Source: a virus
Lineage: Duplodnaviria; Caudoviricetes
IMG/VR virus record: IMGVR_UViG_3300034349_000050
Coordinates: 1-47,931 of that record
DNA length: 47,931 nucleotides
Direction: 5' to 3' (one strand)
Below the pieces are notes generated by a model, which searched no databases, was not told the DNA's origin, and saw nothing but the letters and a program-made list of their open reading frames with translations. This document shows positions 3,054-45,709 of this stretch, piece after piece. Each line of letters opens with the position of its first letter. The first letter of the stretch is position 1. A program made the translations under genes and the position numbers.

Positions 3054-3065
3054 AGGAAAGTTTAC

Positions 3066-21856: not shown

Positions 21857-21900
21857 GGACTTAGTACGGGCGATGTTTTCTAGTAAGACCGAAGTTTCTA

Positions 21901-21922: not shown

Positions 21923-21944
21923 AAGGACCAACCTGGAGAAAAAT

Positions 21945-23826: not shown

Positions 23827-26800
23827 ATGTCTAATCAAGTCCAGTACGAAAATCCGTTTAGCGACGACCAAGAACTTGCTGAAAGGTATGCTAAAGGTCG
23901 TGCTTCTACTGAAAAGGACAGCGCCTTTCTTGGCGCTCTCCGTGGTGGCGTATCGAGTCTAAAAGGCACGAGTGTATCCGCACTTTCAGCTGGAGCGCAC
24001 GCTATTGGACTCGATAGCGTAGGGTCAAAACTTGACAGGTCTGCTGCGAAAACGATGGCTCAAAGTCAAGGAGAGAGCTTTCTAACTCCCTCTTTGCAAG
24101 ACGTTAATAATGCGCAATCTCTTGGTAGGTGGGTAGCAGGGAATATCGCGAGTAACATCCCCCTGTTCGGATCATTAGCTTTAGGCGGCGCAGCTGGCGG
24201 TGTTCTTGGAGCGGCAACGCACGGAAAACGTGGACTAGCTAAGGCTATAGACAAAGCTAATACCAAAGAGCTAGAAAAAATACTTGAAAAAGACTATGGA
24301 GCGTCAGCTTCTACGGCGCGCGCAGCCGAAAACCTAATAAAACCTGCGGACGAAAAAGACTTTCTAAAAAACGCCGTTTCCGCCGGTCTTTCCCGTGTAA
24401 CTCTTCGGTCACGTATAGGCAGCGACATCGGTAGCATTTTACCTTATGCTGTCCAAACTAGTGGCGAAAACGAACAGGCGTATCAAAACGATCCGAATAG
24501 TACGGCGACTGAAAAAGAAAAAGCTCGTATGGCCCTAAAATTGGGGCTAGCAGAAAGTATTGTGGGCTCATATGTATCTCCTATGGCTGTACTACAACGC
24601 TTTACCAAGGCTGAAAAAGCGATCGACAAAGCTGCAAAATACTCTGGTCTTAGTAAGACAGAAAAAAGCAAGATGTTGGCCAAAGCTGCTGCGAAGGAGT
24701 GGCTACACGCCGGAGTCAATGAAAGCGCCACAGAGCTTTTTGAGGATAGTATTTCCCAATGGGGCGGAAGACAGCTCAATCCGGACTTAGATTATAACGT
24801 AGCTCAAGGAATAGAAAGCGGATTAGCTGGTGGCGTAGTCGGCGGCGCGATGGCCTCCCCTGCTGCGCTGTCGGCGATGCATCGCGCTCGAAAAACAGCT
24901 TTGGATGAAGAAGAACAAGCCTTCGAGAACTCCCCAGAAGGTACTCAGCAAAAGATCGACGCCCTGGACACAGAAGTCCCGGAAAGTGAGAAAGACTTCA
25001 CCTTCCACTTGGTGCGTTCGGACCTGCTTCAAACTAAAGCTGTCCGACTGCTCCACACGACGACTGCTAACCCAGCTGATATCATTCAAACCTTCAAGGA
25101 CTTGAAAGATGCCCAAGCAGTTGCGCCAACCAATATAAACGATAAGGACAAGTGGATTCACAATATAGCCAGACTGGAGAAGGCATCCCAGGACCTGCTT
25201 GCTGCTCACCCCGTTGAGCTGGCAAGTTTTGCGCATTACGCAGCTACGCCTACAACCCAACCTGGTAGTAAGCCACGCGGAACTCCCGAGGAAGAGCTTC
25301 ACATAAATGGTCAGGTTGACAAAGACCTTTTTGTTTCTCTGTTCTTAGCTCAAGGTAACCAGGAGCTTGTTGATTTAGCCCAAGGAAAGGACAACCTAGA
25401 TGTCAGTACCGCTCTCCAAGGAAATGATGAAGTAGAGATCGACACGGCTACTAGAGGGCTCGCATTGAAACTACATAGAATGTATGAAACGATGCTGCAC
25501 AACCCTGTGGACCAAGAACTGTCAACTAAGTTACTCACTGCTAGGAATGAGTTGTTCGAAAAAACAGGCGTAGTCGCGATCCCATTCTCACCAGTGGAAA
25601 AGAAGGAACAGATTGCTATTTTCACAGCTATAAAGGATACATCCAAAGATCCAAATATACGCGTAGATGCAATAGAGCGCATAGTTGCTCTTTCTCTTAA
25701 CGTCCCCGACCATATATCTGACTCGTTAAAACTTGAGGAAAGAACACGAGTGCTTCATCCTGACGTTCTACCAAACTCGTTCTTTGATACAAACCACACT
25801 GAGTCTGATTCTGCTCGCCATAATCGTATCGATAGCGCATATAACATGGCTGAAGCGGCACTTGAAAAGAATCCTGATAATCCATTACTTGCTGCGCAAG
25901 TTGAAAGACTGAACTCTACTCTCGCACAACTGGAAATTAGCGAAGGAAAAATACGGCCCTCTTCTTCTGAGGAAGTATTAAGAACTGAGAAAGTTGAGCT
26001 AGAAAGCAAGGGCAAAGAAAACTTGACACCTAGAGAACAGACGAGGCTTCTGCGCATCAACGGTGCGTTGATGCAGCGTGCGCGCCTAACAGCAAGAGGT
26101 AGTACCGTTTCTGATGAGGAAGCAGAGGAACAGCGTAAGAGCGAGACAGTTAAGAAGGTCGAGATACAGGCCAAACCACAAGGTTTACCTTCCAACCATG
26201 TTTTGAGTTCTTTTCCGGACAAAGCCGACGACAACGCAGAGTTTGGGTACGTTGGAGTTGACAGAAGTGGTTACGCCATTATAAAAGGCAAGTCTGGTCT
26301 GCGGCAATATAGTATTGTGCGCATTCCGCCGACTATAAACGAACTAATCGGTCAACCTGCCGATAGCGCAAATCCCGCCATTCCTCCAAAGCCGATATAC
26401 TTTGGCGGCACAGCTTTGGAATACGGCGAAGCAGCCGAGATGATCGTCAAGGCTCATACGGAAGGAAAGCCACTCGATTATAAGGCATTTTACCGTGAGG
26501 CTGAAAGGCAATATCATGAATCACGACCTTTGATCCCTCTAGATGGACACACTCCTACGCCTTTAATGGTGCGCAGTGATTATGAAGGAAATCTCATTCA
26601 TATACCTAGTGAGAGCGATAGAATTTCGAGAAGGGCGCCTTTTGTCGCTATCATACCTGCTGATCCTACAGGGAAAATTGTAATAAAGCACACACGTTCT
26701 GGTGTACTTGTTGAAATCCCTGTAAACCTAGAAGATCTTCTGATAATGAAGAAGAAAAAGGCTGATAATAGTTTCACAATGGCCAATGTTAGAGAAGAAC

Positions 26801-29800
26801 TTCCTAATGTTGCCAAGTACAACGATAAACCTATATCAGCAGAGAGTATAGGTGCGGCTCTTGCGGAAGCTAACAAAAATAGAACCGAAGCTATGGCCTT
26901 AGCTGAGGCTGCGGGTGAAGAGTTCGACCCTAACACTCCGGGGACGTTCGTAACTGCAGAAGAAATATTCACTCTCGCAAGACACTCGTTTGAATTCCGC
27001 GGCGAATGGCGTGAAGTTGGAACAGTCGTAGTAAAAAGCGGTGAAGGAGGGGCAGTATTCGCCGAGGAAGCGACAGTCGATAGTGATTATTATCGCGCTA
27101 ACCCTATTCTTGCCGAATACAACGCAATACCAGTTAAGATAACGTCCGAACCTGGGCCAGAACACATGCGCCTGGGTGTAGCAGAGGCGGTTAAGTATTT
27201 CTACAACCTATCAGAACGCAAAGTTCTGCTTGGGACCATGGACAACAAACTGTTCTTTGTTACTCCAGAGAAGAGGCAAGAATTTCTCGACGACTATAAA
27301 TTACGAGATACCCTTGAGGGCAATATTAACTTCCTTGAACGAATAGGCACCATCTTGAAGAAAGAGAGCGGCGATCGCAAGATGCACAAGGTAGATCACA
27401 TTAAGCATCTACTCAACCAAGATGATGGTAAAGGTGGCTTGAAGCATGAGAGCGATGGCACAGTAGGCATAATTGAGAATGCGGAGTTGACGCAGGGAGT
27501 TATGCGCAGATGGGTTACTGACACCAGTGCTCCAAACAGGCGCGGGTATTGGAAAGTAGATAAAGGAATTCTTCGTTCTCCTTTACAGTTCCGCGACTGG
27601 AAACGCGCGATAAATACTGAAACAGGAATGGTTGATCTTAAGGCCCTTGCGGCTTCTGAGACACTAACTGAAGAGCAACAGGCGCTTAATGCCGCGCTCC
27701 AGTTTGGTAAAAAACAAACAAAAACTACTGATAATGGAGATGCTGCTGAGATTGAGTGGTACCGTATGTTCCCTCCTGCATCTCAGCGTGGAGGTTCCGT
27801 AAACTACCAGCAGATAATGTTTAGTGATAATGATAGAGCCATCGCGTATGCGAAGCAAGATCGTGCGCGCTTAAGCGGGATATCGAACGCCATTGACGAA
27901 ATCTATGCTGATAACCCAGAAGTAATAAGAAAAATTGCACTTGGCATGTCTCCAGCTGATCTGATATCTCAAGAAGGACCGTTGAAACTGCTGACTCAAT
28001 TCAAGGCTGATACGTCTCGTGCATATGTATTCGCATCTGAAGAACTGCTTGATGCTCTCATACCACTGGACAAGAAAGCACTCACCAAGATAAAGGGTGA
28101 ATTTGCAATTAGATATCAGCGTAAGTATGAAGGTAGTCGATCAGAGTGTCTACTTCTTCCTGAAACATACAACGAAATGAATAAGATATGGCGCAAGAGA
28201 AACAATGATCGCAATCTGCAAGAAGGCGATATTGTTATTCTTCACCGTGATCCCGCTCTTCCTGACGCTTCCTCCATGGCACCGTTTATATTTCGCGGTA
28301 TAGCTACGTTGCAGAATGACTTTGGTTCTCATAACCGCGGCATCGTTGTTCATTCTAACGCTACAGGATGGGCTGAAGCAGCAGGCGACTTCGATGGAGA
28401 CTCCGGTGTTCTCACGTATCCTGATCCAAACTTAATACCGGCCAAGCAGCGCCAAGATACTAACGCTCCTGGAATTAGTTTCATGAAATATGGCGCGGAT
28501 AAAGAAGAGCCATACACAAAGTTCATTCCAGTTGGGGCGATAATAGCTTTCACCAAGCCTGGTGATACTGCTGTCACGAGAATAGAAATAAATGCTGATA
28601 AGTCTAATCTGATAATACCTGATGGCGTGAAGATGACGAATGTAACCATACAAGCCCCTATAATGCAGAGATCAATAGAGGATGAAACGGGCGGTGTAGC
28701 TGAACCTGAGATAATGGGGCACGAAAAAGAAATAGACCTCGTTGGACATATAGCGACTATACGTGCGACGGGCTTCAGTCAGATGATTGGCAACATAATG
28801 AGCCTGGCTCAAAAAGCCGCCGAAATCGGTCTCTTAGATAAACTTGTGTACATTGAAAAAATGGACAGACACGGTAACCCTGTTGTCAATAAAGCAACAG
28901 GGCTTACAGAAGAGACGCACGTCACTTTTGCCATACTTGCCGCCAAACTCGGGCAGGCTTCTATAAGCGCGAAGAAGAAAGCGGCTTTTGCCGAACAAGC
29001 CATGAAAGCTTATAAGAAGCTCACGGAATTCATCGACGATAATTCTCCCGTTGAACGTGACCCTCAAACTGGCCAAGTGCTTATGCGTACTATAAAGCAC
29101 GGTCCAGACAAGGGCAAGCAAGTACCAATAAAAGGTTCTTACTTCATTAAACTTTTCCGCGATATTTCTGATGCACCAATACGTAGTTCTGAAAGCGCTA
29201 AATTGCTCAAAGCTCTCGCGGTAAAAAATGACGCACTTTTCTTTAAACAGAAAGGATATACGCCTCAAGTATTCGTAAAAGACGGCGCTTCGCCAAAAGG
29301 CTACTGGGGTAAACCAGTAACTAAGGATGAGTGTCTTGAAGTAGCTTTTATGGCGGCGCTCAGAGTGCTGCGAAACTACAGAAATGACAGATTCCGTACG
29401 CTTGAGGATATTCTCAGATCGACCGATAAATCTCCGGAGGTAACGAGTCTTCAGCTGCAGGCGAGAGCTTTAACAATCGAACTACGCAAAACAATTGATC
29501 CAGTCATAGCCAAAGAACTAAAAACACCTTTCGCTGTACTACAACATACCATCAAATACTACGGCGGCGGAATCGAGGCTATTATCGACCCAGCAGGCGC
29601 TATAGGTTCCACATGGTATGCTCTTAAGCCAGAGTTAAAGAATTCACCAAACTATTTTGATAATACTCCTTCAATGCACATAGAGCTTGCTTGGCGCACC
29701 ATAGTGCTCAAGAAAATATTCACGGCAATTGATTTGTTCAGTTCAGGCGGTTTTAACGAAGCACTAAGCGCCGCGGCAGTAAAGCTATCAGAAGAATCTG

Positions 29801-32800
29801 GAAAAAATAATCCGACCGTACATGAATACCTTAGACGGACGAATGAGTACTATAGATATCTTTCCAATAAACGCCAAGACTTGGATACTATAGATGATAG
29901 ACAAGAGATAGAGAGCTATCTTAATGAACGGTCCATCCTTAATAGCCAGCTAAAATACTACTATAACCTGAACGTTTTGACGGGGTCCCAGCTCATCGCG
30001 TATGGCCCGCAGGCAATGGCAGCAAGACTAATAACGATTCCAGAACTGGAAAAGATAGCGTCCTTAGCCAAGAACGCTGGTACTTTCAGAATGTCCGTTA
30101 CAGTCGCTGATAAGGCCGGAAATAAGCTCCTAACTAGTGACATAATTCCTGGTATCTACAAAGCGGCCGACGACGGGAGTTTCACGCTTGTAAGAAATCT
30201 CGACAATACCGCTGAACCTGGTTCGATCAAACTACAACGATACCGTGAACCAGGGACAAAAAACAAGATAGCCTATGATGCAGTCGACCCACTACCTCAA
30301 ATGAGGGAGATGAGTGATATACGGCTTGGTGCTAAGGATGAAGTTATCATAATCCCACTCGACCCAACTACTGGGGCGACACGTCAGGTCCAGGTAAACA
30401 CTCTTTCAGCTACTAATGAAACCGTCGTTAAGGCACAAGCCGAAGCTAAAGCGCAAGCTGGCGATATGGAAATTGCCTTCAGCACATGGCCAGCTATGCC
30501 AGCATCTGATGTCAATACCAGACCAGGTGAACCACACCTCAGTGATGCGCAGAGATTATCGCAGGCCATAACAGATCCAGCCGTAGCTAGTGGAGCAAAA
30601 CCTTTCCCCTTAGCGCCGCGTGTGTATGAGGATAATCTAGGTAAATGGTATGCCACGTTTGTTGAAAGAAAGAGCAGGAACGAACCAGACTACAGAAAAA
30701 TACTAATCAACAAGGTCTACCACTATTTTAGAGTAGAACGCGTAGAGCAAGCTCCGAGACGTGGTGCTGATATCAAGCAGCCTTGGGTTACATACCTTGG
30801 CACAGATTACAACACAGCTTTGAATACTGCGTATGCCGGTGGATCGCTTCCAACCGTAACAAGAGCTAATTTTGATAGAGAAAAGAAGCTGAAGCAACAA
30901 GAAATTGCCAATATGCCGCTTCGCAAGGCAATTTCCGATTACGTTGCTTCCATATCCACAAAAGCAGAAAACGCGCCTACAGTTGCTGAATATAATACAC
31001 TGCTTGGCCTGCTCGACCCGAGCACTTTCACGAGAGGGGGCGAGTTTAAGGCCCTTTATGATAGAATAGTAGAATTTCTTCCTAGGGTAATCGTATCTCG
31101 CGAGACTGGTAGAGTGCTTAGCAGGGAGTCCGACAAAGAAAAAGCCAAAAAGAAGCGCCAGGAGCTTTATCCAGACCTGCTTAATCCTGCCCAAGAACTT
31201 GCGGCAGTTAAGTTTTTTGTGGCTGAAGCCGCTAGATTAGCAGCCACGATAGAACCGGTCAAGAGTGCTGATCCAAGTCTTGTAAGAAACCAGATTAAAC
31301 TCACTCTTCCAGCAATCTATGATGACTTAAGCTCTGATAGATATTCATATAACGAGGCGCGTGTAGCCAGAGATATGGAGCGTTCTAGTCGAGCTACGAC
31401 TTTTATAGGAAGCCACGATGGTACAGCGTGGGCTGCGCACTACGCTAGTCTGTGGGGCAACAAAGTAAATACTGGGCAATATACCAAGGACGACATTGTT
31501 TTCGTTGTAGTAAATAGTCCTAGACTTGATGGAACGCACTTTAATGACGACACAGCTGAAGCGCATCACATAAAGAAATGCATCGAGGAAGCTGCTAAAG
31601 CAGGCGCTAAGTTCCTGTTCCCGAATATAAAACTTCTTTTGGCAGTGTCTGAAGATCGCGCCAAGGCGAGAGTAACAGGTAAACCAGCCACCAAGCTGGA
31701 GTATGCCGGTGAGTACGACGCGGCCACATTCCTAAATAAACTTGGGCTGGGTTACGCTATACCGACTGAAAAATCTGCTGATCCAACTCTTTGGGAGAAG
31801 GCTGAAACCGGTGTAAAGGCGAGTTCGTTGTTTAGTGCTAACGCAGACGCGGCTATAAATCTTGACCCTGATCCACATGCTACCAACTCTTTGGCTCACG
31901 TTGAATTACGTACCATGAACTCTGCACAAACTACTGCGGAGTTACAGAATGCGACGGACAGTCTTGGCTTCCTTGTAGGACACGCAGGAAAAACACCAAA
32001 ACTGATAAACGCAGAACTTATGTATGATGCACTGATACGAACTGGCATTCAGAAGAATATAGACCTTGCTGGGCAAATACTCGAATACGCTAGAACACAA
32101 GGTAGAAAAACCTGGGCCGATGAGAAAGGTGTCGTCCATACTAGAAAGGGTAGATTCGGAACAGGTACTCGTGGGGTAATGCTCCCGCAGTCGGATGGTA
32201 CTGTATTTATCTATGTCGCAGGTGGAAAGCATGATACGAAAGCTGCACAACTTGGTATTTTGGCGCACGAGCTCGGTCACTGGTTGATTGATGCTGAGTG
32301 GGCCCACCTAAATGATATTGGTGGCAACAAGGTACTAGCCGCTAAGATACGCGCTGCTGCCCTTGCGCACATGAGCAAGAAGAACATACCAGTTAGTGAG
32401 GCTGCATTCCATGAATGGTGCGCCGATAATATAGCTTCTTGGATTACGACTAATCCCGTTGTTCGTTCCGGCATGGACACATGGTTCAAGAGAGTAGCCG
32501 ATAACCTAAAGCGCATGTGGTCTAAAATAAGGGAGCTATTTGCTGGAGTTGAAGGACGCCAGACTGATGGAACCAACACCTTCCCGAAAGCTGATGCCAA
32601 CGTCGAAGAGTGGATGAACAGTCTGCTTAAGCTGAAGGATCCACAAGAGGTTGTGTTGGCATATGGTCCCGACAATCCAAGCGGTTCCGCTAGCACTATA
32701 AGCATAGTAGACAGAATCGCACAGCGAAAAGTTCGTCTTAAGAGATGGGCAGATACTGGAAATATGGACATTCAGGCTGTCGATGAAATAATTCCATACA

Positions 32801-35595: not shown

Positions 35596-35596
35596 T

Positions 35597-35701
35597 ATGA
35601 GTGGGACTAAAGCGTGTAATAGGTGCGGTATTGAAAAGCCATTAGCAGAGTTCACTCGCAGTAAAAGCAATAAAGGCAGCAAAATCAACGCCGTCACTTA
35701 G
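35597..35701 (+). pseudogene. Truncated remnant of an HNH/EndoVII-type endonuclease N-terminal zinc finger
   Basis: MSGTKACNRCGIEKPLAEFTRSKSNKG matches the KxCxxCxxEKPLxEF start of such genes but stops after 34 aa, before the second CxxC. Confidence 0.6.
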
Positions 35702-35713
35702 AGGATAAATAAC

Positions 35714-36811
35714 ATGGTAGACTACGACACCTACAGAGATCCACTACGTGATCTTTCGGAAGAACAACTATATGCGTATGCCATGCGTATGAAACATCTT
35801 GGCTTCAGGTCGGGGGCTCTAGACCAACTAGATGCAGACGAGCTTTCCAGGTACGGCTTCAACCCTAGCAAGCTGCACGTTGCCCCTGGAGTTCAGGATA
35901 AATATGGCGTATACGGTTTAGCGATACCACCAAAAAAGGAATTGGATGGTATTAATATGCACGACTATGTCAATGGTAGCTATAAAGGTCTTGATTCAAA
36001 CATAGCGGAAAACGAGCATCTCGTCGGTGGTGACACCATACTTCTTACTAAACCCGGAGAGTCACTTGATAACTACGGTGGTACTATGCGCCACGAGGCA
36101 GATCATCAGGCTATGTATAACACTGGACTGAAGGATAATTCTCCTACAGGGTACGATGACGAAGAGGCTCTAGTACGATACATAGATCAACGTGTCCACG
36201 GTGATAACCAACCAGGAGATGCAACGGCTTGGTACGCAGCACGGTATCCCGACATCAGAGCACGAAAAGCTAAGATGGAAGAAGCCGCCAGAGCATATGC
36301 TAGGTTTGATGATGAGCGGAAAGCACGCGAAGCACAAAACTACCAGAGAAATGAACAAGCACAGCAGACTCTACAAACACCAGTAGAGCGCATGCAGTTC
36401 CTAATGGGTTCTGACGATCCGCAACCAAGACGGCAGATGGCTAAAGTGTACAACCAATATTACCCACCTCTTCAGTCTCCAGGTAGAGCACCTGTAGAAG
36501 AGGTAGCGCAAGCTGCATATAAACCTCCTCATGATATCTATCCCACAGATGATAAAGAACTATATCGTCCAACCGGAGATCGAGCTGTACCAAATGGTCC
36601 AAAGTATGCAAACGCCGGAGCCATACCTAGTGGTTACGCTGGAGGCGGGTGGGAGAACACTTTCAAAGAGAGTGATCCAGCTCCAAGAGTGGCTAGTAGG
36701 GGGTACGAGGAAGCCAACAAGACTTGGGCGGCTGATCCTACCATGCGGGGTAGAGCCGAAGGCGGCAAAACCTTCTACTCGTACAAAAGTCCTTTAGGAT
36801 CAACGGTGTAA
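35714..36811 (+). CDS. Zincin-motif (HExxH) protein carrying YxxPL tags at both ends
   Basis: GAGGA SD. MRHEADHQAM...DEEALVR. YRDPL near the N-terminus and YKSPL near the C-terminus. Confidence 0.7.
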   Translation: MVDYDTYRDPLRDLSEEQLYAYAMRMKHLGFRSGALDQLDADELSRYGFNPSKLHVAPGVQDKYGVYGLAIPPKKELDGINMHDYVNGSYKGLDSNIAENEHLVGGDTILLTKPGESLDNYGGTMRHEADHQAMYNTGLKDNSPTGYDDEEALVRYIDQRVHGDNQPGDATAWYAARYPDIRARKAKMEEAARAYARFDDERKAREAQNYQRNEQAQQTLQTPVERMQFLMGSDDPQPRRQMAKVYNQYYPPLQSPGRAPVEEVAQAAYKPPHDIYPTDDKELYRPTGDRAVPNGPKYANAGAIPSGYAGGGWENTFKESDPAPRVASRGYEEANKTWAADPTMRGRAEGGKTFYSYKSPLGSTV

Positions 36812-36977
36812 GCGTGTAAGCAAGATGTAATCTTGGAAAGTGTCGTAAGTCATTGATTTGCGCGCTCTTAGTAGAGAAAAGAAGTTGTAAGTAGTTTTCT
36901 AACAAAAGTTAAAGTTTTTTTTCTAAAAAACAATAACAAGCTACGGTTCTAGTTTAGTTGGTTTTTACATTACAAAT
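36806..36977. repeat. Non-coding ~170-bp element, copy 1 (TGTAA/TTACA repeats, IHF consensus, A/T tracts)
   Basis: Collinear with 43613-43787. GTGTAAGC x2, GATGTAATC, TAAGTCATTGATT (36846-36858) and TTACATTACAAAT. Confidence 0.9.
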
Positions 36978-36990
36978 CTCTGGTATAATA
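36969..36990 (+). promoter_or_regulatory. Putative promoter ATTACAAA-N4-TGGTATAATA
   Basis: Extended -10 at 36981-36989, matching 21901-21922. Confidence 0.6.
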
Positions 36991-37053
36991 TCTTCTAAAA
37001 TCAAGGCCGCAATAGTCGGCGACAACAGCCAAGCTGGCTAAAAAGAGGCAAAA

Positions 37054-37662
37054 ATGGCAATCGTGGTTAATGAAACAACAAAGAAATTACGCGCACTTGG
37101 CGGCCACTGGGCAGGAGCAAAGACTGAGTTCCTCGCCGGTGGCAAAGTTCACGTTACTGGTCTCACACATCCTGACTATGCGGAAAAGGGCCTGCACACT
37201 ACCGCTGACAAGCTCAAAGCTAGGTTAGCTAAGGACGCGCCGGCTAAAAAGAAGGCCCCATCTAAGTCCGGGAATGCTATTGATCAGTATACCGAATACG
37301 CTAACACACGTAAGGGCGAGGCTTATGAACCGCCGAAAGAAGGAACAAGAACCTCCAGGAAAACCGACCGCGCGCAATACGCAGAATACGCTGCATTGAG
37401 ACAGGGAGAAAAATTCAAGCCGCCTGCTACAGGCGACGTGCACGTACGTACGAAGCCACAAGAGCGCCCTGGGCCTCACCACGAAGGAGCCGAAGATGAG
37501 TATGACCGCGCGATGAAGGGAGAGCTCTCGGCTACGAAGCCCATTAGAGAAGCGAAGACGCCGCCAACAGTCGCAGAGGCGAATGCCCAAGCAAAAGCCA
37601 AGCCATCTCAACCAGGCGAGGTTAAAAAACCCCGGGCAAGAAAACCTAAGGCCGCTAGCTAA
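37054..37662 (+). CDS. Basic Lys/Ala/Pro-rich protein, possible DNA-condensing core protein
   Basis: GAGG SD. C-terminal KKPRARKPKAAS and an internal duplication QY.EYA..R.GE...PP. Confidence 0.65.
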   Translation: MAIVVNETTKKLRALGGHWAGAKTEFLAGGKVHVTGLTHPDYAEKGLHTTADKLKARLAKDAPAKKKAPSKSGNAIDQYTEYANTRKGEAYEPPKEGTRTSRKTDRAQYAEYAALRQGEKFKPPATGDVHVRTKPQERPGPHHEGAEDEYDRAMKGELSATKPIREAKTPPTVAEANAQAKAKPSQPGEVKKPRARKPKAAS

Positions 37663-37676
37663 ACTGGAATTAAGTA

Positions 37677-38426
37677 ATGAGCGATACTTACTTAGAGCGG
37701 TACCAAAACCCACTTGGAACTCAACCAGCGGGTAGACAGCCTATAAGATTAGACCCCACTGTTCAGCACAATGATAGTTACAGTGGTCCTAATACTCAAA
37801 GTATTATGTATACCCAACACCCACAGCCTGTTCAGTACAAAACTCTGATAAACGGAGAAGCTAGGGGTTTTAACTACGACATTCCTGAAATTGATAGACC
37901 AAGAGAAACCAGGCCGAATGCTTTTCAGCGCATAGGAGACAAACTGCGAGCTAACCCAGGATTAACCTCTCTTGGAGCAATGAAGGCAACAGGTATAACT
38001 CCTGAGGGGTATAATGCTATGATGGCTGCGAGGCGCTACAAAGCTTCTCAATACCCTGCCGAGGGCTTGCTGGAGCATGCGGCTGACTTCATAGGTAATC
38101 TAGGAGGAGACACATCTGATCCAATCGGCTGGTATTCAGCCGGAAAAACGATGACTCCTGGAGGTGCTGGAGGTGCTGGAGCAGCATACTCTTCGGTTAA
38201 ATCGGCTCTATCTGATACCCTGGAAGGGAAGTCACCTAACTTCGCCAGGGCCGCGCTAGCGGGAGTTGCCGGATATAGCGGGGCCAGAATTGGCGACAAG
38301 AGCCTTAATAGAGCCCTGGGCCGAAGCTCAGGCAGTATAGGAGAGATAGCAGGAAGATCAATGGCCGGGAACTGGCTTGAGAGTGTGCTGGGTGATGCTT
38401 CAGCAAGCGTTATACCAAGGCAATAA
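37677..38426 (+). CDS. Gly/Ala-rich protein with an N-terminal YQNPLG tag
   Basis: 249-aa ORF with a glycine-zipper-like C-terminal half. Confidence 0.7.
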   Translation: MSDTYLERYQNPLGTQPAGRQPIRLDPTVQHNDSYSGPNTQSIMYTQHPQPVQYKTLINGEARGFNYDIPEIDRPRETRPNAFQRIGDKLRANPGLTSLGAMKATGITPEGYNAMMAARRYKASQYPAEGLLEHAADFIGNLGGDTSDPIGWYSAGKTMTPGGAGGAGAAYSSVKSALSDTLEGKSPNFARAALAGVAGYSGARIGDKSLNRALGRSSGSIGEIAGRSMAGNWLESVLGDASASVIPRQ

Positions 38427-38470
38427 ATAACGAGGCTTAGCCTCACAACACCAACCAAGAGGATAAGACC

Positions 38471-38539
38471 GTGGCATGTGGAAAACCGATGAAGAAGAAA
38501 GCGCCGGCTAAACCCGGCAAAAAGCCCCCCGTTTATTAA
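38471..38539 (+). CDS. 22-aa basic micro-protein MACGKPMKKKAPAKPGKKPPVY
   Basis: GAGGA SD before a GTG start. It is below the ORF-track size cutoff. Confidence 0.55.
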   Translation: MACGKPMKKKAPAKPGKKPPVY

Positions 38540-38556
38540 TAGAGGAGATAAGTAAA

Positions 38557-38694
38557 ATGGCAAGTTCAGGCAGAAGCTCGGGTGCTCCGAAGGCACCAGT
38601 AAAAAATACCCAAGGTAAGAGCAAGCCGCCAATTAAGGGTGGCGGAAAGACAAATCCCTTTGGGAAGTCACCTACCAAACGGCCGGGCGATTGA
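38557..38694 (+). CDS. 45-aa basic Lys/Pro/Gly/Ser-rich micro-protein
   Basis: Strong GAGGAG SD. MASSGRSSGAPKAPVKNTQGKSKPPIKGGGKTNPFGKSPTKRPGD. Confidence 0.65.
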   Translation: MASSGRSSGAPKAPVKNTQGKSKPPIKGGGKTNPFGKSPTKRPGD

Positions 38695-38700
38695 AGGCAT

Positions 38701-38722
38701 AAGGCGCTATTCGTAGCGCCTT
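38701..38722. terminator. Perfect stem-loop with TTCG loop (terminator or mRNA-stabilising hairpin)
   Basis: AAGGCGCTA-TTCG-TAGCGCCTT just after a stop codon. The U-tract is weak. Confidence 0.55.
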
Positions 38723-38740
38723 GAACCTAGGACATAGAAT

Positions 38741-39196
38741 ATGAGTAAGAAACCTGTGTATACTGACGAAGAGGTAGATGCCGCTGTAAAAGCAGGCTTC
38801 TTATCAAAGCAGGATGCTGCGTACCTTAAACAAGGGCTAGATACTCGTGGTAAGGCCATCGTCGATCCTTATGGTAAAGTCATGCAGGTAGATCGAGATG
38901 CAGCATTACAAATACTAGCATCTCCAGATATAGCAACGAAAGATAAAAAGAAAGCCTATGAAAGTCTTATTGCCTTTGATAAGGCAAATCCTCCATCCAA
39001 GAAGAAGTATGGACAAGGACATCCATGGGGTGGTATTGCAGGAGGGACTGTAGGTGGGTTAGCTGGAGCAGCGATCGGAAGCAGTCCGCTGGTAAAAGCA
39101 GCACTTGGAACAGGTGGAGCAATTGGTGGCGCCGCTCTTGGCTCAATGATCGCACCACGTAGACCAAGTCCCTACGAAGATCCACTAGGCGCCTAG
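38741..39196 (+). CDS. Glycine-zipper protein with C-terminal YEDPLGA
   Basis: PWGGIAGGTVGGLAGAAIG...GTGGAIGGAALG. Confidence 0.75.
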   Translation: MSKKPVYTDEEVDAAVKAGFLSKQDAAYLKQGLDTRGKAIVDPYGKVMQVDRDAALQILASPDIATKDKKKAYESLIAFDKANPPSKKKYGQGHPWGGIAGGTVGGLAGAAIGSSPLVKAALGTGGAIGGAALGSMIAPRRPSPYEDPLGA

Positions 39197-39199
39197 ATC

Positions 39200-39511
39200 A
39201 TGGACCAAGAAGAAGAAAATAAGATCTTCACCACCCCAACTGCTCTCGGGTCTATATTCTTGGGCGCTGGTGCTGGTACAGCTGTAGGCGCTGGTATGCG
39301 TAGGCTATACAGAGGTAAAGGAACCGTAGCGTTCCAAAATATGGCAAAGCTTAAACCTATTGGAACGCTTATGTCAGCCGAGTCTTGGCAGGACTATTTA
39401 AACAATATAGTCGGTGGAACCGTAGGTTTAGGAGCAGGGTACGGCTATAATAAGCTGCAAGAGAAGGAAAGAAAGAGACTTCGCGCTTACAAAGACCCAT
39501 TAGGAGCTTAG
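39200..39511 (+). CDS. Glycine-zipper protein with C-terminal YKDPLGA
   Basis: Two GxxxG-rich hydrophobic segments. Confidence 0.75.
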   Translation: MDQEEENKIFTTPTALGSIFLGAGAGTAVGAGMRRLYRGKGTVAFQNMAKLKPIGTLMSAESWQDYLNNIVGGTVGLGAGYGYNKLQEKERKRLRAYKDPLGA

Positions 39512-39514
39512 AAC

Positions 39515-39940
39515 ATGGGAATTTGGACAAACCACAAGCAAGGTGATCTATTAAACGAAGCGCAAGGTGAAGCCTTGACAGCTGCTCGTGACAAAGAAAG
39601 AGCGATAAATGGTGGAAGGCCAGATAAGGCTCTTATAGAAGAACTGAAGAAGAAAGAAACCAAGAAGAAGGCTAAGGACGTTGCACCAACAAAGCCCAAG
39701 GAAAAAGTGGGGCCAAGACCGAAGGCAGAAGTTAAGGCGGAAACCAAGAGGGAACCACCTCCAGTACAAGGTGTGTCGAAAAAGAGTAACACGGCGCTGC
39801 TCAACTTCATGGGTGAACCAAGAAAGATACCTAAACCTCAGTGGAAAAGGAAAGCTTGGCTGGCGGGTGGTGGTACGCTAGCAGCAGGGATAGGATATAA
39901 AACATACGAGCACTATAAAGACCCACTGGAGAAAGATTAA
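39515..39940 (+). CDS. Lys-rich protein with a C-terminal Gly-rich hydrophobic segment and YKDPL
   Basis: AGGAG SD and WLAGGGTLAAGIGY...YKDPLEKD. Confidence 0.75.
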   Translation: MGIWTNHKQGDLLNEAQGEALTAARDKERAINGGRPDKALIEELKKKETKKKAKDVAPTKPKEKVGPRPKAEVKAETKREPPPVQGVSKKSNTALLNFMGEPRKIPKPQWKRKAWLAGGGTLAAGIGYKTYEHYKDPLEKD

Positions 39941-40167
39941 TGGCTAAGCTAACGAAAGACCAGCGCGATGCATTAAAAGACGATGATTTCGTCTTTAAAA
40001 AAGAACGTAGATACCCGTACAATGACCCGTCTCACGCCGTTGCGGCCCTTGCAAGAAGTTCTCAGCATGGTACGCCGGAAGAAAAAAAACAGGTTAAGAG
40101 TGCAGTATGCACTCGCTACCCAGGGCTTAACGCCTGTAAAACTGACTCTTACAAGAGCCCGCTATAA
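39940..40167 (+). CDS. Small DUF6582-like protein with C-terminal YKSPL
   Basis: LT...RD.L.D.DF.F.KERRYP..D..HA..ALAR resembles DUF6582 from memory (not searched). TAATG coupling to the upstream gene. Confidence 0.65.
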   Translation: MAKLTKDQRDALKDDDFVFKKERRYPYNDPSHAVAALARSSQHGTPEEKKQVKSAVCTRYPGLNACKTDSYKSPL

Positions 40168-40249
40168 TGGACTACACTAATCTATTCAAACTCGCTCTGG
40201 TCAGAGTATAATCTGCGCAAGGGCTCCAAAACACCAGAGGACATATAAA

Positions 40250-41068
40250 ATGGCACAACAACAGTTTTCACCAGAACAAATTCAATCCGCCGTCGAAAGT
40301 GGTTTAATTACCCAGGAGGACGCCGACTCACTCCTTCAACAAATGGAAGGTGATATGCCGTGGGGTGCCGCCGCAGGCGCTACGGTCGGAGGTCTAGCCG
40401 GGGCTGGAATTGGTGCGCTGGTCGGTGGCCCGATGGGTAAGAAACTAAGTGGCGCAATGTCCAATCTAGCCGGCTCCAACGCTGTATCTAAAGGGCTAAA
40501 AACCGCAGGCGAGTATGGCGAAGGCGCTTTCAAAGGAGGCACTCGCAGCCAGCTTGGTGGTGACATCGCTGGCGCAGCTACTGGTCTTGGTGCTGGCGGA
40601 ATGGCCGGATCAGCCGCAGGTGGAATGATGGACAGTGAACCACAAGGTTTGAGCGACGAGCAGCAACAGCTTATTCAAGCCCTTATGTCGCCAGAAACTA
40701 GTCCTGAGGACAAGAAACAAATATTAGCAATGCTTCAACAGATGGAACAAGGTGGTGGAGAAGGTGATCCAAACGAGCAAGAGCCTGACCAAGACGTAGA
40801 CGATGGTTCTGGCTTCCCATGGTCTCAGGCAGCGGGGGGTGCTGCGGGCGCCGCAATTGGAGCTTCACTAGGAGCTGGCGCAGGCCACATGGCGACAAGA
40901 GGAGCAGCGGGTATGATGGGTAAACCGCGCCTAGGCGGATTTAATGCCGCGCAGATGGGTGGAGCAGGAGCAGGACTTGGATTGGGTGGAGCCGGGGGGA
41001 TCGGAGCTATGGGGATGATGATGGATCCTCGTAAGCAACAGTACGCTGATCCACTAGGACAAGGTTAA
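40250..41068 (+). CDS. Glycine-zipper protein with an acidic linker and C-terminal YADPLGQG
   Basis: GAGGA SD and TATAAT at 40207-40212. Four Gly-zipper segments. Confidence 0.75.
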   Translation: MAQQQFSPEQIQSAVESGLITQEDADSLLQQMEGDMPWGAAAGATVGGLAGAGIGALVGGPMGKKLSGAMSNLAGSNAVSKGLKTAGEYGEGAFKGGTRSQLGGDIAGAATGLGAGGMAGSAAGGMMDSEPQGLSDEQQQLIQALMSPETSPEDKKQILAMLQQMEQGGGEGDPNEQEPDQDVDDGSGFPWSQAAGGAAGAAIGASLGAGAGHMATRGAAGMMGKPRLGGFNAAQMGGAGAGLGLGGAGGIGAMGMMMDPRKQQYADPLGQG

Positions 41069-41077
41069 TAGGAGGCT

Positions 41078-41746
41078 ATGATGTCATCTGAAGAAAATGC
41101 GTTTCGTGGAGAACTTTTTGATCTTGCTAAATCTAGAGGAATGTCCCAAGCGCAACTAAAACAAGCTGCGCAACCGCGTAATGCTTTGAAAGTTATTCCT
41201 CCTCGACGCAGCGCTCTGAAGATGATACCACAGTCATGGAATCCAGCCGTAAGCGTCGGGAAACAAGCAGGACAACCAAGCTGGATAAACGCTATGCTGG
41301 AGCACGCGGATAGGGGTAGTCTCGGTGTACCTGAAGAGACGCTAAGAGCCGCAGCGGAGAAGGAAGCGGCGAGTGCTAAGTTAGCGCGGGCACTAGGACT
41401 ACGCCACCAAGAACAAGGTGCGTGGAGAGAGGCGCTAGAAGGGGCAGAAGCAAGTGCTACTGCGCCTACGGCTAGTGTTAGAAAACCTTTAGCGTCAAGT
41501 CGACCAAGGCTCTCGGAAGAAGAGGTCGCAGCTAGAATAGCGGCCATTGAGCGAGAGAAACTAGCCGCAAGTAAAGTAGCTGATCTGGCTACCTCCCAAG
41601 CGGCCATGGGGACGAAGAAAATACCAAAAGGAAAGATAAGCCAAATCAAGAAACTTGGGCTTGGTCTAGGTGCCTTAGCTGCTGCCTATGGCGTAGGTAG
41701 ATACAACAGCCCTCTAGCACCTGCCGTAGTTGACACATCATGGTAA
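41078..41746 (+). CDS. Ala/Lys-rich protein with a C-terminal hydrophobic segment and YNSPL
   Basis: AGGAGG SD and LGLGLGALAAAYGVGRYNSPLA. Confidence 0.75.
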   Translation: MMSSEENAFRGELFDLAKSRGMSQAQLKQAAQPRNALKVIPPRRSALKMIPQSWNPAVSVGKQAGQPSWINAMLEHADRGSLGVPEETLRAAAEKEAASAKLARALGLRHQEQGAWREALEGAEASATAPTASVRKPLASSRPRLSEEEVAARIAAIEREKLAASKVADLATSQAAMGTKKIPKGKISQIKKLGLGLGALAAAYGVGRYNSPLAPAVVDTSW

Positions 41747-41871
41747 GCAAAGAGACTTGTGGAAAATGTGTGTATCTACTCGTCTACGGGTGCCCGTGCC
41801 AGCCTGCTAAGTGCAGGTACAACCTAGAACCTGATTCTGAGAAGTGCTTAGAGAGGAAAAAAGATGGATAG
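41740..41871 (+). CDS. 43-aa Cys-rich micro-protein
   Basis: MVSKETCGKCVYLLVYGCPCQPAKCRYNLEPDSEKCLERKKDG fills the gap and overlaps both neighbours. Confidence 0.45.
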   Translation: MVSKETCGKCVYLLVYGCPCQPAKCRYNLEPDSEKCLERKKDG

Positions 41872-42703
41872 GCAAGAGAAAAAGAGCTCTGTACCCTACG
41901 GCGCCATTTTAGGTGCATTACTAGGTGGCGCGGGTAAGGGCTACGTCGGCCACCTTCTTGGAAAGGAACTCGGTCTACAGGGTGGAGTAGCTAAAGGGGT
42001 TACTGGCTTAGTGGGTGCAATAGGCGCTGGCGTCGGAGGTTGGGCAGGAAATAAAGCTCAGCAAGGAGACTACGAGGGCGCCATGGGTATAGGAGCAGGA
42101 TTATCTGCGCTAATCGCAGCTGAGGGTATTCGCCATAAGTGGTTACCAACCAGTAAGATTATGGAAATAGCAGAAACGTCACCTAAGTTAGCGCAAGCCC
42201 TTGGAATTGGAGTCCCGCTTGGGGGCTACATCGTAGCTCCTATGATAGCCGAACAACTAGGTAGTGCCGCAGGCCGCCATTTAACTTCTCCCGAGAAACG
42301 TAGAGCCAAGGAAGCAGAACAAGCCGCACTACTAGCCCAGTACGCTGAAGCCAGCCGTGGAAAACCTAACCCTCTTGGTACAATGGCGGCTACTGCCGCA
42401 GGGGGACTTGGTGCTGGGTGGGGAGCTGGTAAGCTCCTTGGACCAAGAGTGGGGAGAATGCTTAAGGGAGATGAAAAAGCAAGAAAGATAAGAGATGCAG
42501 TTGAAAGACTAACAGATGCTAGAAAGAAGGAGCCGAAGGTAAAAGCAGCTGAAAGCAAAGCGTGGGATACAATAGCTGAGCACAAGCGGATTGGCATCGG
42601 CCTTGCCGAAGCTGGTGGCGCGCTACTTGGAGGAACTGGCGCTGGTGTTGGATGGTATAATGCAATGGACGATTCAGATAAATACAAGAGCCCATTAGCA
42701 TGA
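41864..42703 (+). CDS. Glycine-zipper protein with C-terminal YKSPLA
   Basis: GAGG SD, PYGAILGALLGGAG and multiple zippers. Confidence 0.75.
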   Translation: MDRQEKKSSVPYGAILGALLGGAGKGYVGHLLGKELGLQGGVAKGVTGLVGAIGAGVGGWAGNKAQQGDYEGAMGIGAGLSALIAAEGIRHKWLPTSKIMEIAETSPKLAQALGIGVPLGGYIVAPMIAEQLGSAAGRHLTSPEKRRAKEAEQAALLAQYAEASRGKPNPLGTMAATAAGGLGAGWGAGKLLGPRVGRMLKGDEKARKIRDAVERLTDARKKEPKVKAAESKAWDTIAEHKRIGIGLAEAGGALLGGTGAGVGWYNAMDDSDKYKSPLA

Positions 42704-43626
42704 GTAGATACTACGAAGAACCTGATAATAGCCTTCCCTACGGAGCCGTAATAGGCGCTGGGATTGGAGGTGCTGGTCAAGGTTACTTCGGATATAGAGC
42801 TACGAAAGCTCTGCCTGATCCGGTGTTTAACATCGCGCATCTTGGAGTCCTGGAAGGAGCCAAGAAAATGTGGAAAAACGCACCAGAAGGAAGGGTGCGG
42901 AAAGTACTAAACATAGGGCATGGAGTTGGGCACGGAATACATGGAGCATTAGCAGGAGCAATAGCTGGCCATGGTATGCAGAATGGGCAATATGAAGGAA
43001 TGGGGGAGATGGCGGGAGGTGTTGGTTTAGGCGTCCTTGGCTTGAAAGCTGCTGAACACTTATCTCCCACAGGCAAGTTTCTGGAACGCATGGAGAAAAG
43101 CAGGATAGGAAAGAAGATCGTTGATGATCTCTTCAACAAAGCAGCAGGGATAGCGCCGGTTATAAAGAACTCCCACGAAACATGGAAGAAAATGATAGAC
43201 GCAGCACCACTTGTTGCAGGTTCTGGAGGTGCAGGTCTTGCGGGAGCAGTTGGTTTTGGGGAACTTGGTGAGTACCTGACGAGCGACAAGAACAAGAAGA
43301 AAGCTCTTATGAAGGAGAACAAGGCCAAGTTGGAGAAGGCAAAAGAAGGCTATGTTCCTATGTCGCACAAAGCCCTAGCAGCTATGATAGGAGCAACTAT
43401 AGCTGGAGGAACGGGGGGTGCGCTGCTGGGGAAAAGACTTGGAGGGCACTTGCCAGCGAGAAAGTTTGCTGTGCTAGCAGGAAAGGACAACACCCGACTA
43501 GGGCGTATCTACGCTGGTGGAGTCAGCGGTACGATAGGGGCAGTAGGTGGTGGGATGGCGGAAAACAGGTTCGGAGACCGTAGGAAGTACGAAAATCCCT
43601 TGGATAACAAGCGTGTAAGCGTGTAA
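42700..43626 (+). CDS. Glycine-zipper protein, paralog of the upstream gene, with C-terminal YENPL
   Basis: ATGA overlap. PYGAVIGAGIGGAGQGY, Q.GQYEG and LG..LTS blocks are shared with 41864..42703. Confidence 0.75.
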   Translation: MSRYYEEPDNSLPYGAVIGAGIGGAGQGYFGYRATKALPDPVFNIAHLGVLEGAKKMWKNAPEGRVRKVLNIGHGVGHGIHGALAGAIAGHGMQNGQYEGMGEMAGGVGLGVLGLKAAEHLSPTGKFLERMEKSRIGKKIVDDLFNKAAGIAPVIKNSHETWKKMIDAAPLVAGSGGAGLAGAVGFGELGEYLTSDKNKKKALMKENKAKLEKAKEGYVPMSHKALAAMIGATIAGGTGGALLGKRLGGHLPARKFAVLAGKDNTRLGRIYAGGVSGTIGAVGGGMAENRFGDRRKYENPLDNKRVSV

Positions 43627-43787
43627 GCAAGATGTAATCTGGAAAAGTCTCGTAAGTCCTTGATTTCTACGCTCTAAGTACTAAAAGAAGTTGTAATGTG
43701 TTTTTGAAAAAAGTTAAAGTTTTTTTGAAAAAACAAACAAAAAACATTCAGTTCTAACTTAGCGAGATTTTACATTACAAATTACAC
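43613..43787. repeat. Non-coding ~170-bp element, copy 2
   Basis: GTGTAAGC x2, GATGTAATC, TAAGTCCTTGATT (43653-43665) and TTACATTACAAATTACAC. Confidence 0.9.
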
Positions 43788-43800
43788 TTTGGGGAACAAA

Positions 43801-44109
43801 ATGAACGAAGATGAATTACTAGCCCTCCTGTCGGACCCCAACATTCCGGGTGACCAGAAGAAGCGGGCACTTGCCGCTAAGGACAGGCATAAGACTGACT
43901 GGCCGGGGACAATTGCCGCGCTGGGAATGGACGCTGGCGCTGGCGCGCTAGGTATAACAGCATTAGATAAATGGGATCCGCAAAATATTCCCAAAGGATG
44001 GAAACGTAACACGGCAGGAGGAGTTATAGGTGGTGGCGCCGGACTGGCAGCGGCATATGGAATCAACGCTCTTCGTAACTACTACAGTAATCCACTAGGA
44101 CAAGATTAA
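43801..44109 (+). CDS. Glycine-zipper protein with C-terminal YSNPLGQD
   Basis: GGGGA SD before the ATG at 43801, and two zipper segments. Confidence 0.75.
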   Translation: MNEDELLALLSDPNIPGDQKKRALAAKDRHKTDWPGTIAALGMDAGAGALGITALDKWDPQNIPKGWKRNTAGGVIGGGAGLAAAYGINALRNYYSNPLGQD

Positions 44110-45113
44110 TGGCTACATACACCTCTTGGCAAGTAGAAGACGAACTGGTTAATTCTGGCGTAGATCCGGACATGGCCAAAAGCATAGCCTATCAGCTTGG
44201 AGATGATCGTCTAGATAGCGACCAGGTAATGCAGGCGAATAAGTACGCTGAAGTCAGGAACCCACGTCTACCACGAGGAAGTGAGGGAAAACAGGAGTCG
44301 AACTTTGTCCAGAATGCGGCAGGTGAAGGCGGATGGGCAGCAGGCGCATTGGCTAGTGCCAAATTGTTAGGCGGAAAAGGAAGCTTCGTCCTTCCATTCT
44401 TAGGCTCGACCGCAGGAAACTTAGGGACGATGAATGCCTCTAATTTCTACGACAGAGCCACAGTCCCACAGATGATTGGAGACGCCGCCGGAAGCTGGGG
44501 AGGTGGTGCTATAGGTCGGGTAGGTGGCGCGGCCTTAGGAAGAGCTTTAGGAGGCGCAGCAGGGGCCGCCGTAGGAACTGCAGCGGGAGCCGCCACGGGA
44601 GCCGCTACAGGCGCTTGGGGAGGCCCTCTGGGCATGCTTGCGGGTGGCGTACTAGGCGGATGGTTACTGCCTAAACTAATGCCTAACGGATCAAAACCTG
44701 TTGATGAGGACGACGGAAAGAAACCTAGAGGATGGGGAGTAGCTGCGCCATTACTGGCGGCTGGAGCACTCGCAGTACCAAGTAGCCGTAGGTTACTTAA
44801 GAGTGGAATTCCGGACACGGTGCAAAAATATCTAAATCCTCTAGCAGGACATGTTGACAGCTTCTTAACCAAGAATGGTGGTGGACTATATGGAAATATG
44901 CGCAAGGCTTACCAGGATGTGAGAAAACCCGGCATCGAAGCATATGAAGGAAGACAGAAGAGAAATATTTATGGATTTGGCGGCGGCTTCCGGGATTCGG
45001 CAAATAGTATGTCTGCGACAGGCGCCGCGATGGACTCAGTTGGAGAGTCGTTAACAGATTTTATCAAACGAAAAATGGCCGCAAGAGCAGCTAAAGCAGG
45101 AGTTACAACATGA
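44109..45113 (+). CDS. Long glycine-zipper protein with internal YLNPL
   Basis: GAALGRALGGAAGAAVGTAAGAATGAATGAWGGPLGMLAGGVLGG, with TAATG coupling. Confidence 0.75.
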   Translation: MATYTSWQVEDELVNSGVDPDMAKSIAYQLGDDRLDSDQVMQANKYAEVRNPRLPRGSEGKQESNFVQNAAGEGGWAAGALASAKLLGGKGSFVLPFLGSTAGNLGTMNASNFYDRATVPQMIGDAAGSWGGGAIGRVGGAALGRALGGAAGAAVGTAAGAATGAATGAWGGPLGMLAGGVLGGWLLPKLMPNGSKPVDEDDGKKPRGWGVAAPLLAAGALAVPSSRRLLKSGIPDTVQKYLNPLAGHVDSFLTKNGGGLYGNMRKAYQDVRKPGIEAYEGRQKRNIYGFGGGFRDSANSMSATGAAMDSVGESLTDFIKRKMAARAAKAGVTT

Positions 45114-45709
45114 CAAGACAATACGATGATGACAGTGGTGGCTCCATGCTTGGCACAATCGCAAAAGGAACAGGACTACTAGGCGCAGGATTGACTATGA
45201 CACCAGTTGGTAGACCGCTGCGAAAGTCAATAAGAAAGTTCGCGAGTCCTTTTGAGAGGCAGATCAGCGCTGTAGAAACTGCTTTAGGTAAGACGAAAGC
45301 GCCTATACAGGAAGGCCTAAACATAGCAACAGGCGGTGCTTTTGGGTTAGGAAAACTCGCACAGAAAGACGCAAGATTAGAGAGAGAACTACTACAAAAT
45401 AGGAAAGACCCAAACTTGTGGAGTTCAACAGGACAAAATTTTCGGGATCTAGGATCAGGTATTGTAAATGCTGGACGCGGAATTAAAGAAACCCTAGCTA
45501 CTTTACCAACTGCTGCTACCGTAGCTCTTCGTAAAAAGGGCACCGAAGCAGAGCCAATGGGATCAGAAATGTGGAGGACTTGGTTAGCTTCTCCAAGATC
45601 AAAACATTTTTCTCCTGATGAACTAGAACTGATATTACGCCATCCTGGAACTACTCCTGATGAAAAGGCGCTTGCCTATATGCGAGGAATAGCTAATGCT
45701 AAACTATGA
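45110..45709 (+). CDS. Hypothetical protein related to the array family
   Basis: AGGAG SD and ATGA overlap. C-terminal ILRHPGTTPDEKALA module is shared with array members. Confidence 0.7.
   Translation: MTRQYDDDSGGSMLGTIAKGTGLLGAGLTMTPVGRPLRKSIRKFASPFERQISAVETALGKTKAPIQEGLNIATGGAFGLGKLAQKDARLERELLQNRKDPNLWSSTGQNFRDLGSGIVNAGRGIKETLATLPTAATVALRKKGTEAEPMGSEMWRTWLASPRSKHFSPDELELILRHPGTTPDEKALAYMRGIANAKL

Follow-up and report, generated by a model that had tools for sequence, protein, structure and literature searches.

A five-residue motif at the termini of thirteen otherwise unrelated proteins of an uncultured podophage: a candidate signal for loading cargo into the virion

How podophages choose the proteins that are packaged in their heads is a largely open question, and the ejection proteins of phage P22 are each thought to have a site of their own. 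Outside the viruses, the cargo-loading peptides of encapsulins are short, lie at either end of the protein and dock unrelated cargo in an HK97-fold shell without cleavage. In phage T4, as far as the available part of the source describes it, the capsid targeting sequence (CTS), an N-terminal propeptide of 10-19 residues, brings divergent proteins to the core, after which gp21 cuts it (PMC9026906). In P22, according to the portion of the account available, the scaffold is required for the loading of the ejection proteins, leaves uncut, and releases them as it does so (PMC8402733). Here we describe the five-residue motif Y-x-[DNS]-P-[LF], shared by 13 proteins of one gene block in the IMG/VR virus record IMGVR_UViG_3300034349_000050. 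The whole stretch that was analysed, hereafter the window, is this 47,931-base record, estimated to be 36% complete; it makes up about one third of a genome of about 132 kb, and its proteins are also encoded on a contig of 131,589 bp. The sequencing runs in which it occurs carry the label peat metagenome, and no RNA run was listed among them.

The motif occurs in 14 in-frame copies on 13 proteins, at the genes where a sequence-only reading of this DNA had placed them. Ten copies lie within nine residues of the C-terminus, three in the first 13 residues, and one is internal. Tagged proteins are the products of 13 of the 15 genes of at least 75 codons between 23827 and 45709, or 13 of 17 when two tiny open reading frames (ORFs) are included; the untagged members of the block are 37054, 45110 and the tiny ORFs at 38471 and 38557 (genes are named by their start position). 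The 22 other proteins of the window (8,537 amino acids) contain no copy, and the absence claimed earlier for the tail, HNH, HU and helicase proteins is thus correct and extends to the lysis proteins. When each protein was shuffled 3,000 times, the mean was 0.61 copies (maximum 5) against the 14 observed, and 0.03 terminal copies (maximum 2) against 13, an enrichment at the termini that was counted over the proteins of the window. On these counts, chance is ruled out as the source of the motif. When all X..XX patterns in the terminal 20-mers were tested, to allow for the look-elsewhere effect, Y..PL was found in 11 proteins, with a maximum of 6 in 2,000 shuffles, and a position weight matrix built from 19 copies gave the 14 sites 15.0-19.4 bits and the next-best site 10.9. 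The residue that follows the motif is small (Gly or Ala) in 14 of the 19 copies.

The bodies that carry the motif are otherwise unrelated, as had been proposed. An all-against-all BLASTP of 20 proteins of the region, with low-complexity masking, gave no pair at E<=0.05, which rules out recent paralogy, though several tagged proteins are alike in their glycine-zipper composition. Most of the small tagged proteins are basic and glycine-rich, the helices of the glycine-zipper members are weakly hydrophobic (best 19-residue hydropathy 1.25-1.58), and no family was assigned to most of the set. Ten tagged proteins form clusters of one or two members each, without diverged variants. Across 35500-46300, no difference was seen at any tag in contigs of three DNA runs, two of which are possibly the window's own source while the third spans 17 of 30 bins.

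A degenerate DNA pattern of the motif has 15 matches, of which 14 are in frame and correspond to the listed copies and one is out of frame. Proline is encoded by all four of its codons (CCA 8, CCT 3, CCG 2 and CCC 1), and the 30 nucleotides upstream of the copies are 27% alike on average. A purely DNA-level repeat is ruled out by these three results. The claim that the codons vary synonymously and that conservation lies at the protein level is therefore upheld, all the more as homologues of about 30% identity keep the residues. These homologues are those of the giant protein of 3,922 residues (23827..35595, + strand), which carries YENPF at residues 7-11 (23845..23859, + strand, in frame). Four of six other full-length giants, all from metagenome records, have the motif in their first 10 residues (YENPF, YSDPF, YDNPF and YNDPL); three of the four are 54%, 31% and 30% identical to the window giant overall, and the fourth is 28% identical over the polymerase region described below. 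In P0002 and P0007, which have the most distant N-termini, little besides the tag is common in the first 20 residues. In a quick tree (10 rows) built from the giant's C-terminal part, a branch with a Shimodaira-Hasegawa-like approximate likelihood ratio (SH-aLRT) support of 90 separated the five tagged giants from the rest, or of 100 when P0004, whose N-terminus is missing, is counted with them; the tree is consistent with one gain of the tag. The untagged homologue P0020 has a Tyr-Asp-Pro-rich start that might be a diverged tag.

The second set of homologues is that of the 75-residue DUF6582-like protein (39940). Its closest homologue (P0050, 64% identity), which has 11 extra residues in the linker, carries YESPL-G at its very C-terminus. 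The tag is absent from five of five more distant homologues and from all of 80 DUF6582-like proteins of other viral contigs (the best 80 of 362 loci), and the background in other viral DUF6582 loci is 4 terminal copies in 1,323 ORFs. So the tag was added to a widespread domain in the window's lineage, and then retained. Relatives with both the cargo block and head genes were not recovered from collections in which near kin of the window's phage may be missing. Nothing in INPHARED matched the polymerase core, the giant N-terminus or the zincin; the giant and its alignments, when run against viral, metagenome and genome data, brought up two phages with a stand-alone polymerase and nothing else; the helicase and the tail genes as queries led to no usable locus; and DNA patterns for the intergenic repeat and for tag-plus-stop had no match elsewhere.

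Judged by its genes, the source of the window is a KPP25/F116-like short-tailed podophage that is uncultured. On the + strand are genes for tail fibres, a holin, head closure and the tail, and gene 12824 has matches in 40 phage records, 37 of which are Pseudomonas phages including F116. Kochitakasuvirus (KPP25, R18, A1002) and Hollowayvirus (F116) have homologous tail and head-closure genes in the same order, with the giant gene last in the structural block, and A1002 is a podophage by cryo-EM in the portion of the report available (PMC13730344). They differ from the window's phage in having genomes of 60-67 kb instead of about 132 kb and, in the stretches of 12 loci examined, no motif copy in ORFs of at least 60 residues and no cargo block past the giant gene.

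In this setting three lines tie the tagged set to the virion interior: the homology and gene order of the giant, the head neighbourhood of DUF6582, and a promoter motif common with the tail and ejection genes. First, residues 35-257 and 2860-3903 of the giant are homologous to the 2,211-residue giant of the complete 67-kb phage G001, whose portal (39%) and coat (49%) are KPP25-like. The C-terminus matches this G001 giant (E 1e-50), a 'virion structural protein' of KPP25 and R18 (E 8e-9) and, in Vibrio phage Phriendly, the product of the last structural gene; the N-terminus matches phrog_6958, a virion structural protein (E 6e-7). By homology and gene order, then, the giant is the last and largest product of the structural block, a large ejection-type protein. 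An HExxH motif lies near residue 2814, and residues about 1124-1538, with DFDGD at 1521-1525, are homologous to a separate 792-residue protein of G001, the polymerase-like gene of which is distant from the structural block of that phage. Because the G001 giant matches both ends and the 792-residue protein matches the middle, we read the window's giant as an ejection-type protein with an inserted domain. In an alignment of 31 sequences of this domain, D421, D423, G424, D425, R374 and P376 (alignment numbering) are invariant, which gives the DxDxD signature and the upstream R-x-P. The region also has weak Pfam matches to RNA_pol_Rpb1_2 (E 0.009-0.018), and PDB sequence and profile searches with it returned no polymerase match. 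The inserted domain is likely to be a two-barrel RNA polymerase. It belongs (window 27196-28440) to a family of stand-alone DFDGD proteins of 620-820 residues, for example L009:9248-11626 and L010:9314-11737, with no Pfam match in the two members scanned and no PDB match. This arrangement suggests that a virion RNA polymerase arose independently once more, when a stand-alone two-barrel enzyme was inserted in an ejection protein.

Second, among 34 loci of other phages, 23 have the DUF6582-like gene within 3 kb of a portal, terminase, head-protease or capsid gene, or fused to one. Of 80 loci at the outset, 39 remained once overlaps had been filtered and duplicates removed; 34 of these contained a fusion or a neighbour of 250-800 residues, and one truncated ORF was left out. 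The domain is often fused into larger head-module ORFs, as in L008:154-1641 (with DUF2213), L072 (with a head protease), L033, L044 and L090, which suggests that DUF6582 is a capsid-interior domain. Third, the extended -10-like sequence TG[CG]TATAAT has seven matches in the window, all on the + strand, against 1.03 expected, and none of 100 shuffles reached seven. Six of the seven lie within 130 nucleotides of the starts of genes 6776, 12824, 21945, 23827, 37054 and 42700, and the seventh is inside gene 17613. This placement suggests one transcription class for the tail, ejection and tagged genes.

We therefore favour, as rather more probable than improbable, a reading in which Y-x-[DNS]-P-[LF] is an uncut docking motif for one repeated pocket in the assembling head, which loads the 13 proteins into the virion. 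The earlier proposal of virion cargo is strengthened in two respects, the retention of the motif as protein and the three lines that lead to the virion interior. By analogy with P22, docking would probably take place via the scaffold or the coat. The block would be transcribed together with the tail and ejection genes, and a flexible terminus would dock, through the side chains of its Tyr and Pro-Leu/Phe, on the scaffold or on the inside of the coat, in the manner of P22 scaffold recruitment. Cargo could be let go as the scaffold exits or the shell expands; at infection the giant with its polymerase would be ejected, probably along with some of the small cargo, with the basic members likely on the DNA and the glycine-zipper members likely at the membrane. 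A gene would enter the cargo set by gaining five codons at either end. A cut after the Leu is argued against by the tag of 39940, which abuts the stop codon, and by that of 41864, which has a single residue after it. More tentatively, and short of calling it probable, one could imagine a single polarity-free, protease-independent five-residue code, read by a procapsid pocket that takes in both a 430-kDa virion RNA polymerase and a dozen exchangeable cargoes, a code which arose once in the lineage with the inserted polymerase and which lets genes join the payload by five codons at either end.

Several points weigh against the docking reading. The two smaller putative ejection proteins (20804 and 21945) lack the tag, and as a consequence it is not a general ejection signal; the block members 37054 and 45110 lack it as well. 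Two of the six full-length giant homologues and the G001 giant are also without it and yet are presumably packaged, and the called ORFs of G001 (21,567 amino acids) contain no copy at all. Homologues were examined for two of the 13 tagged proteins, the giant and the DUF6582-like protein. The count of 23 in 34 loci comes without a random-gene control, from viral fragments that are enriched for hallmark genes, and the 130-nucleotide promoter distance was set after the data were seen. The polymerase call, likely as it is, stands on motifs and the weak Pfam matches, and profile searches of the PDB matched no polymerase. The window holds no head gene (none for a capsid, scaffold, portal, terminase or protease could be detected in it), hence the candidate receptors lie outside it. 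Six putative scaffolds of distant relatives have no copy of the motif, but these scaffolds were labelled from gene position and the relatives are themselves tagless. Finally, there is some constraint at the DNA level. Relative to local usage, TAC (12 of 14) and YTA (10 of 13) are both in excess in the copies (p about 0.03 each). Four C-terminal copies lie 26-27 nucleotides ahead of the next ATG, and in three of them the Leu codon and the next one or two codons spell AGGA or GGAG, as in a ribosome-binding site. Three pairs of copies are 65-75% alike over the 20 nucleotides downstream, and the copy at 40150 overlaps a -10-like hexamer. Such an overlay can explain the frequent Gly after the Leu; for the other fixed positions (Tyr, Asp/Asn/Ser and Pro) and for the copies at N-termini it cannot account.

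The alternative that survives best, although we hold it to be rather unlikely, is that the motif binds a host protein, or a phage protein outside the virion, in the infected cell, such as a chaperone, a protease adaptor or a membrane factor. The tagged proteins would then have a partner in common and not a location in the head. Short motifs that are not tied to one position and combine an aromatic with a Pro-hydrophobic anchor are what peptide-binding pockets of all kinds typically recognise, most of the tagged proteins have no family that would place them, and host-type promoter motifs alone do not mark late genes. Against such a partner, the tag is found on a giant that is virion-internal by homology and on a head-associated DUF6582-like domain, and it is absent from the very helicase, HNH, HU-like, lysis and tail proteins that the window also encodes.

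It is unlikely, too, that the motif acts at ejection, by engaging the portal, the tail channel or the ejected giant and so ordering the exit of the cargo. Short segments of ejection proteins are bound to the portal and the tail lumen in N4 and crAss001, in the portions of the reports available (PMC13434306, PMC10172136), and the tag of the giant is at its extreme N-terminus. Threading, however, implies a polarity, whereas three proteins have the tag at the N-terminus and ten at the C-terminus; neither of the smaller putative ejection proteins carries it, and a 12-fold portal would offer few sites for 13 proteins.

We consider very unlikely a third possibility, that a head-maturation protease recognises the motif and trims the cargo there, in the manner of T4 and phiKZ. 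The small residue after most copies would suit a protease, the rest of the genome could encode one, and Alt of T4 is trimmed at both ends in the available part of the source (PMC9026906). The geometry speaks otherwise: a cut after the Leu would take no residue off 39940 and one off 41864, and a cut before the Tyr would strip the motif from the C-terminally tagged proteins and retain it on the N-terminally tagged ones. Moreover, no head protease is annotated in the head modules of four relatives, F116, 8P, Dartukuta and KPP25. The idea that the peptide is the by-product of a DNA signal, a gene-end cassette with the next gene's ribosome-binding site or promoter that was spread by recombination, draws on the codon excess, the spacing to the next ATG, the paired downstream likeness and the -10 overlap given above, and is highly improbable, being largely refuted for the Y, D/N/S and P positions by the reading frame of 14 of the 15 DNA matches, the four Pro codons, the three N-terminal and one internal copies that cannot be ribosome-binding sites, the unlike upstream sequences and the residues retained at 30% identity.

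All genes of at least 75 codons in the tagged block are on the + strand. After the giant comes a 365-residue HExxH (zincin-like) protein (35714..36811), which is tagged at both ends (YRDPL, 35732-35746; YKSPL, 36782-36796) and for which the Atlas leads were LPD23/zincin folds only, with scores of 0.89-0.90. An extended -10-like site (36981..36989) precedes the gene of an untagged Lys-rich protein of 202 residues (37054..37662), which is followed by a 249-residue protein with N-terminal YQNPL (37677..38426; motif 37701-37715). Two tiny, very basic, untagged ORFs of 22 and 45 residues (38471-38539 and 38557-38694; isoelectric point 10-11) are possible DNA-condensing peptides. Then follow two basic glycine-zipper proteins with C-terminal tags, one of 151 residues (38741..39196; YEDPL, 39173-39187) and one of 103 (39200..39511; YKDPL, 39488-39502, overlapping the AGGAG of the next gene), and a Lys-rich protein of 141 residues (39515..39940; C-terminal YKDPL, 39914-39928). 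The DUF6582-like protein (39940..40167) has YKSPL (40150-40164) as its very last residues. Next are an acidic glycine-zipper protein of 272 residues (40250..41068; C-terminal YADPL, 41042-41056), the Atlas matches of which were at chance level (at most 0.82), and a basic protein of 222 residues (41078..41746; C-terminal YNSPL, 41702-41716). The remaining tagged genes encode four glycine-zipper proteins, of 279 residues (basic, 41864..42703; YKSPL, 42683-42697, a single residue before the stop), 308 residues (basic, 42700..43626; C-terminal YENPL, 43588-43602), 102 residues (43801..44109; C-terminal YSNPL, 44083-44097) and 334 residues (44109..45113), the last with the internal YLNPL (44829-44843), 89 residues short of its end. 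A basic, untagged protein of 199 residues (45110..45709) is the last of the block.

Upstream of the giant, two untagged genes of 350 and 583 codons (20804 and 21945; 20804..23696, + strand) stand where F116/KPP25-like podophages have their small and middle ejection proteins, a putative assignment from gene order alone. A near-perfect 13-bp hairpin (23722-23753; z -5.7 as DNA) follows the extended -10 site and precedes the giant gene, and is a candidate terminator or regulatory hairpin. An AT-rich intergenic element of about 180 bp is present in two copies (36799-36978 and 43592-43782) that are 74-81% alike. Further diverged copies are found on other contigs of similar depth in the same runs, one of which has the element at both ends in opposite orientation; it is likely to be a dispersed repeat of the window's phage with about six or more copies. 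It has no notable fold (z -0.95 to -1.7) and could serve the virion polymerase as an early promoter or as an origin. Downstream, an untagged HU/IHF-like gene (45696-46184) ends the + strand block and is convergent with a SNF2-type helicase gene. Amid the tail genes, two neighbouring genes are rich in CxxC repeats (5432-6723), the second with a C-terminal HNH domain. No Rfam family or tRNA was found in the window.

As regards its giant, the window's phage resembles N4, the crAss-like phages and Thermus phage P23-45, in which a giant packaged protein carries the polymerase, as described in the portions of the reports available (PMC13434306, PMC10172136, 10.1101/2022.12.01.518664); the DFDGD motif fits the two-barrel class of the crAss and P23-45 enzymes. 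The N4 virion RNA polymerase includes a zincin-like MPTase domain, and zincins occur in 'polyvalent' virion proteins, in what is available of that source (PMC5512222). The N4 enzyme is T7-like, whereas that of the window appears two-barrel-like and has no detectable sequence match to solved polymerases. It also differs from all three in that the polymerase was apparently inserted in a KPP25-like ejection protein and stands alone in the relative G001. The available parts of the accounts of these virion polymerases, and of the zincin 'polyvalent' proteins, describe no shared cargo tag.

As regards the motif, the T4 CTS had been named as a precedent by the sequence-only reading, and the functional likeness stands. 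In the parts of the sources available, the CTS of IPI-III is a short peptide common to small, mostly basic, divergent proteins, for which binding to the scaffolding core and cargo swapping were proposed (PMC9026906, PMC3012670); likewise, the window's motif is a short peptide on 13 proteins without a masked BLASTP pair at E<=0.05. The structural parallel was not sustained. The T4 tag is a cleaved N-terminal propeptide of a myovirus, removed by gp21, whereas the five residues described here sit at either end (three copies N-terminal, ten C-terminal, one internal), on a podophage giant among others, and show no consistent cut; the zero or one residue left after two copies speaks against a prohead-protease site with removal, although a protease gene may lie outside the window. 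As to a T4-like head module (gp21 protease, gp22 core), the head genes are outside the window; its tail and ejection genes are F116/KPP25-like, and the head modules of those phages lack an annotated protease. Membership in the classical CTS is rejected on the N-terminal propeptide. P22 is nearer in that it is a podophage in which gp7, gp16 and gp20 are loaded by scaffold binding and freed on scaffold exit; it differs in that each of the three has a separate binding site, with no shared tag described in the portion of the source available, and the window has one motif for 13 proteins (PMC8402733). Within a literature coverage that left aside most subscription journals and supplements, we found no report of Y-x-[DNS]-P-[LF] or of a comparable podophage tag. 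Encapsulins, with which the likeness is one of size and placement of the peptide, are cellular compartments and not virions, and the window encodes none. If the docking reading is true, a shared five-residue motif at either end would be a directly testable answer to the question of cargo selection, cargo could be read from the genome through a pattern search, and the tag would be useful for loading proteins into phage particles. It would also be, to our knowledge, the shortest portable capsid-loading tag.

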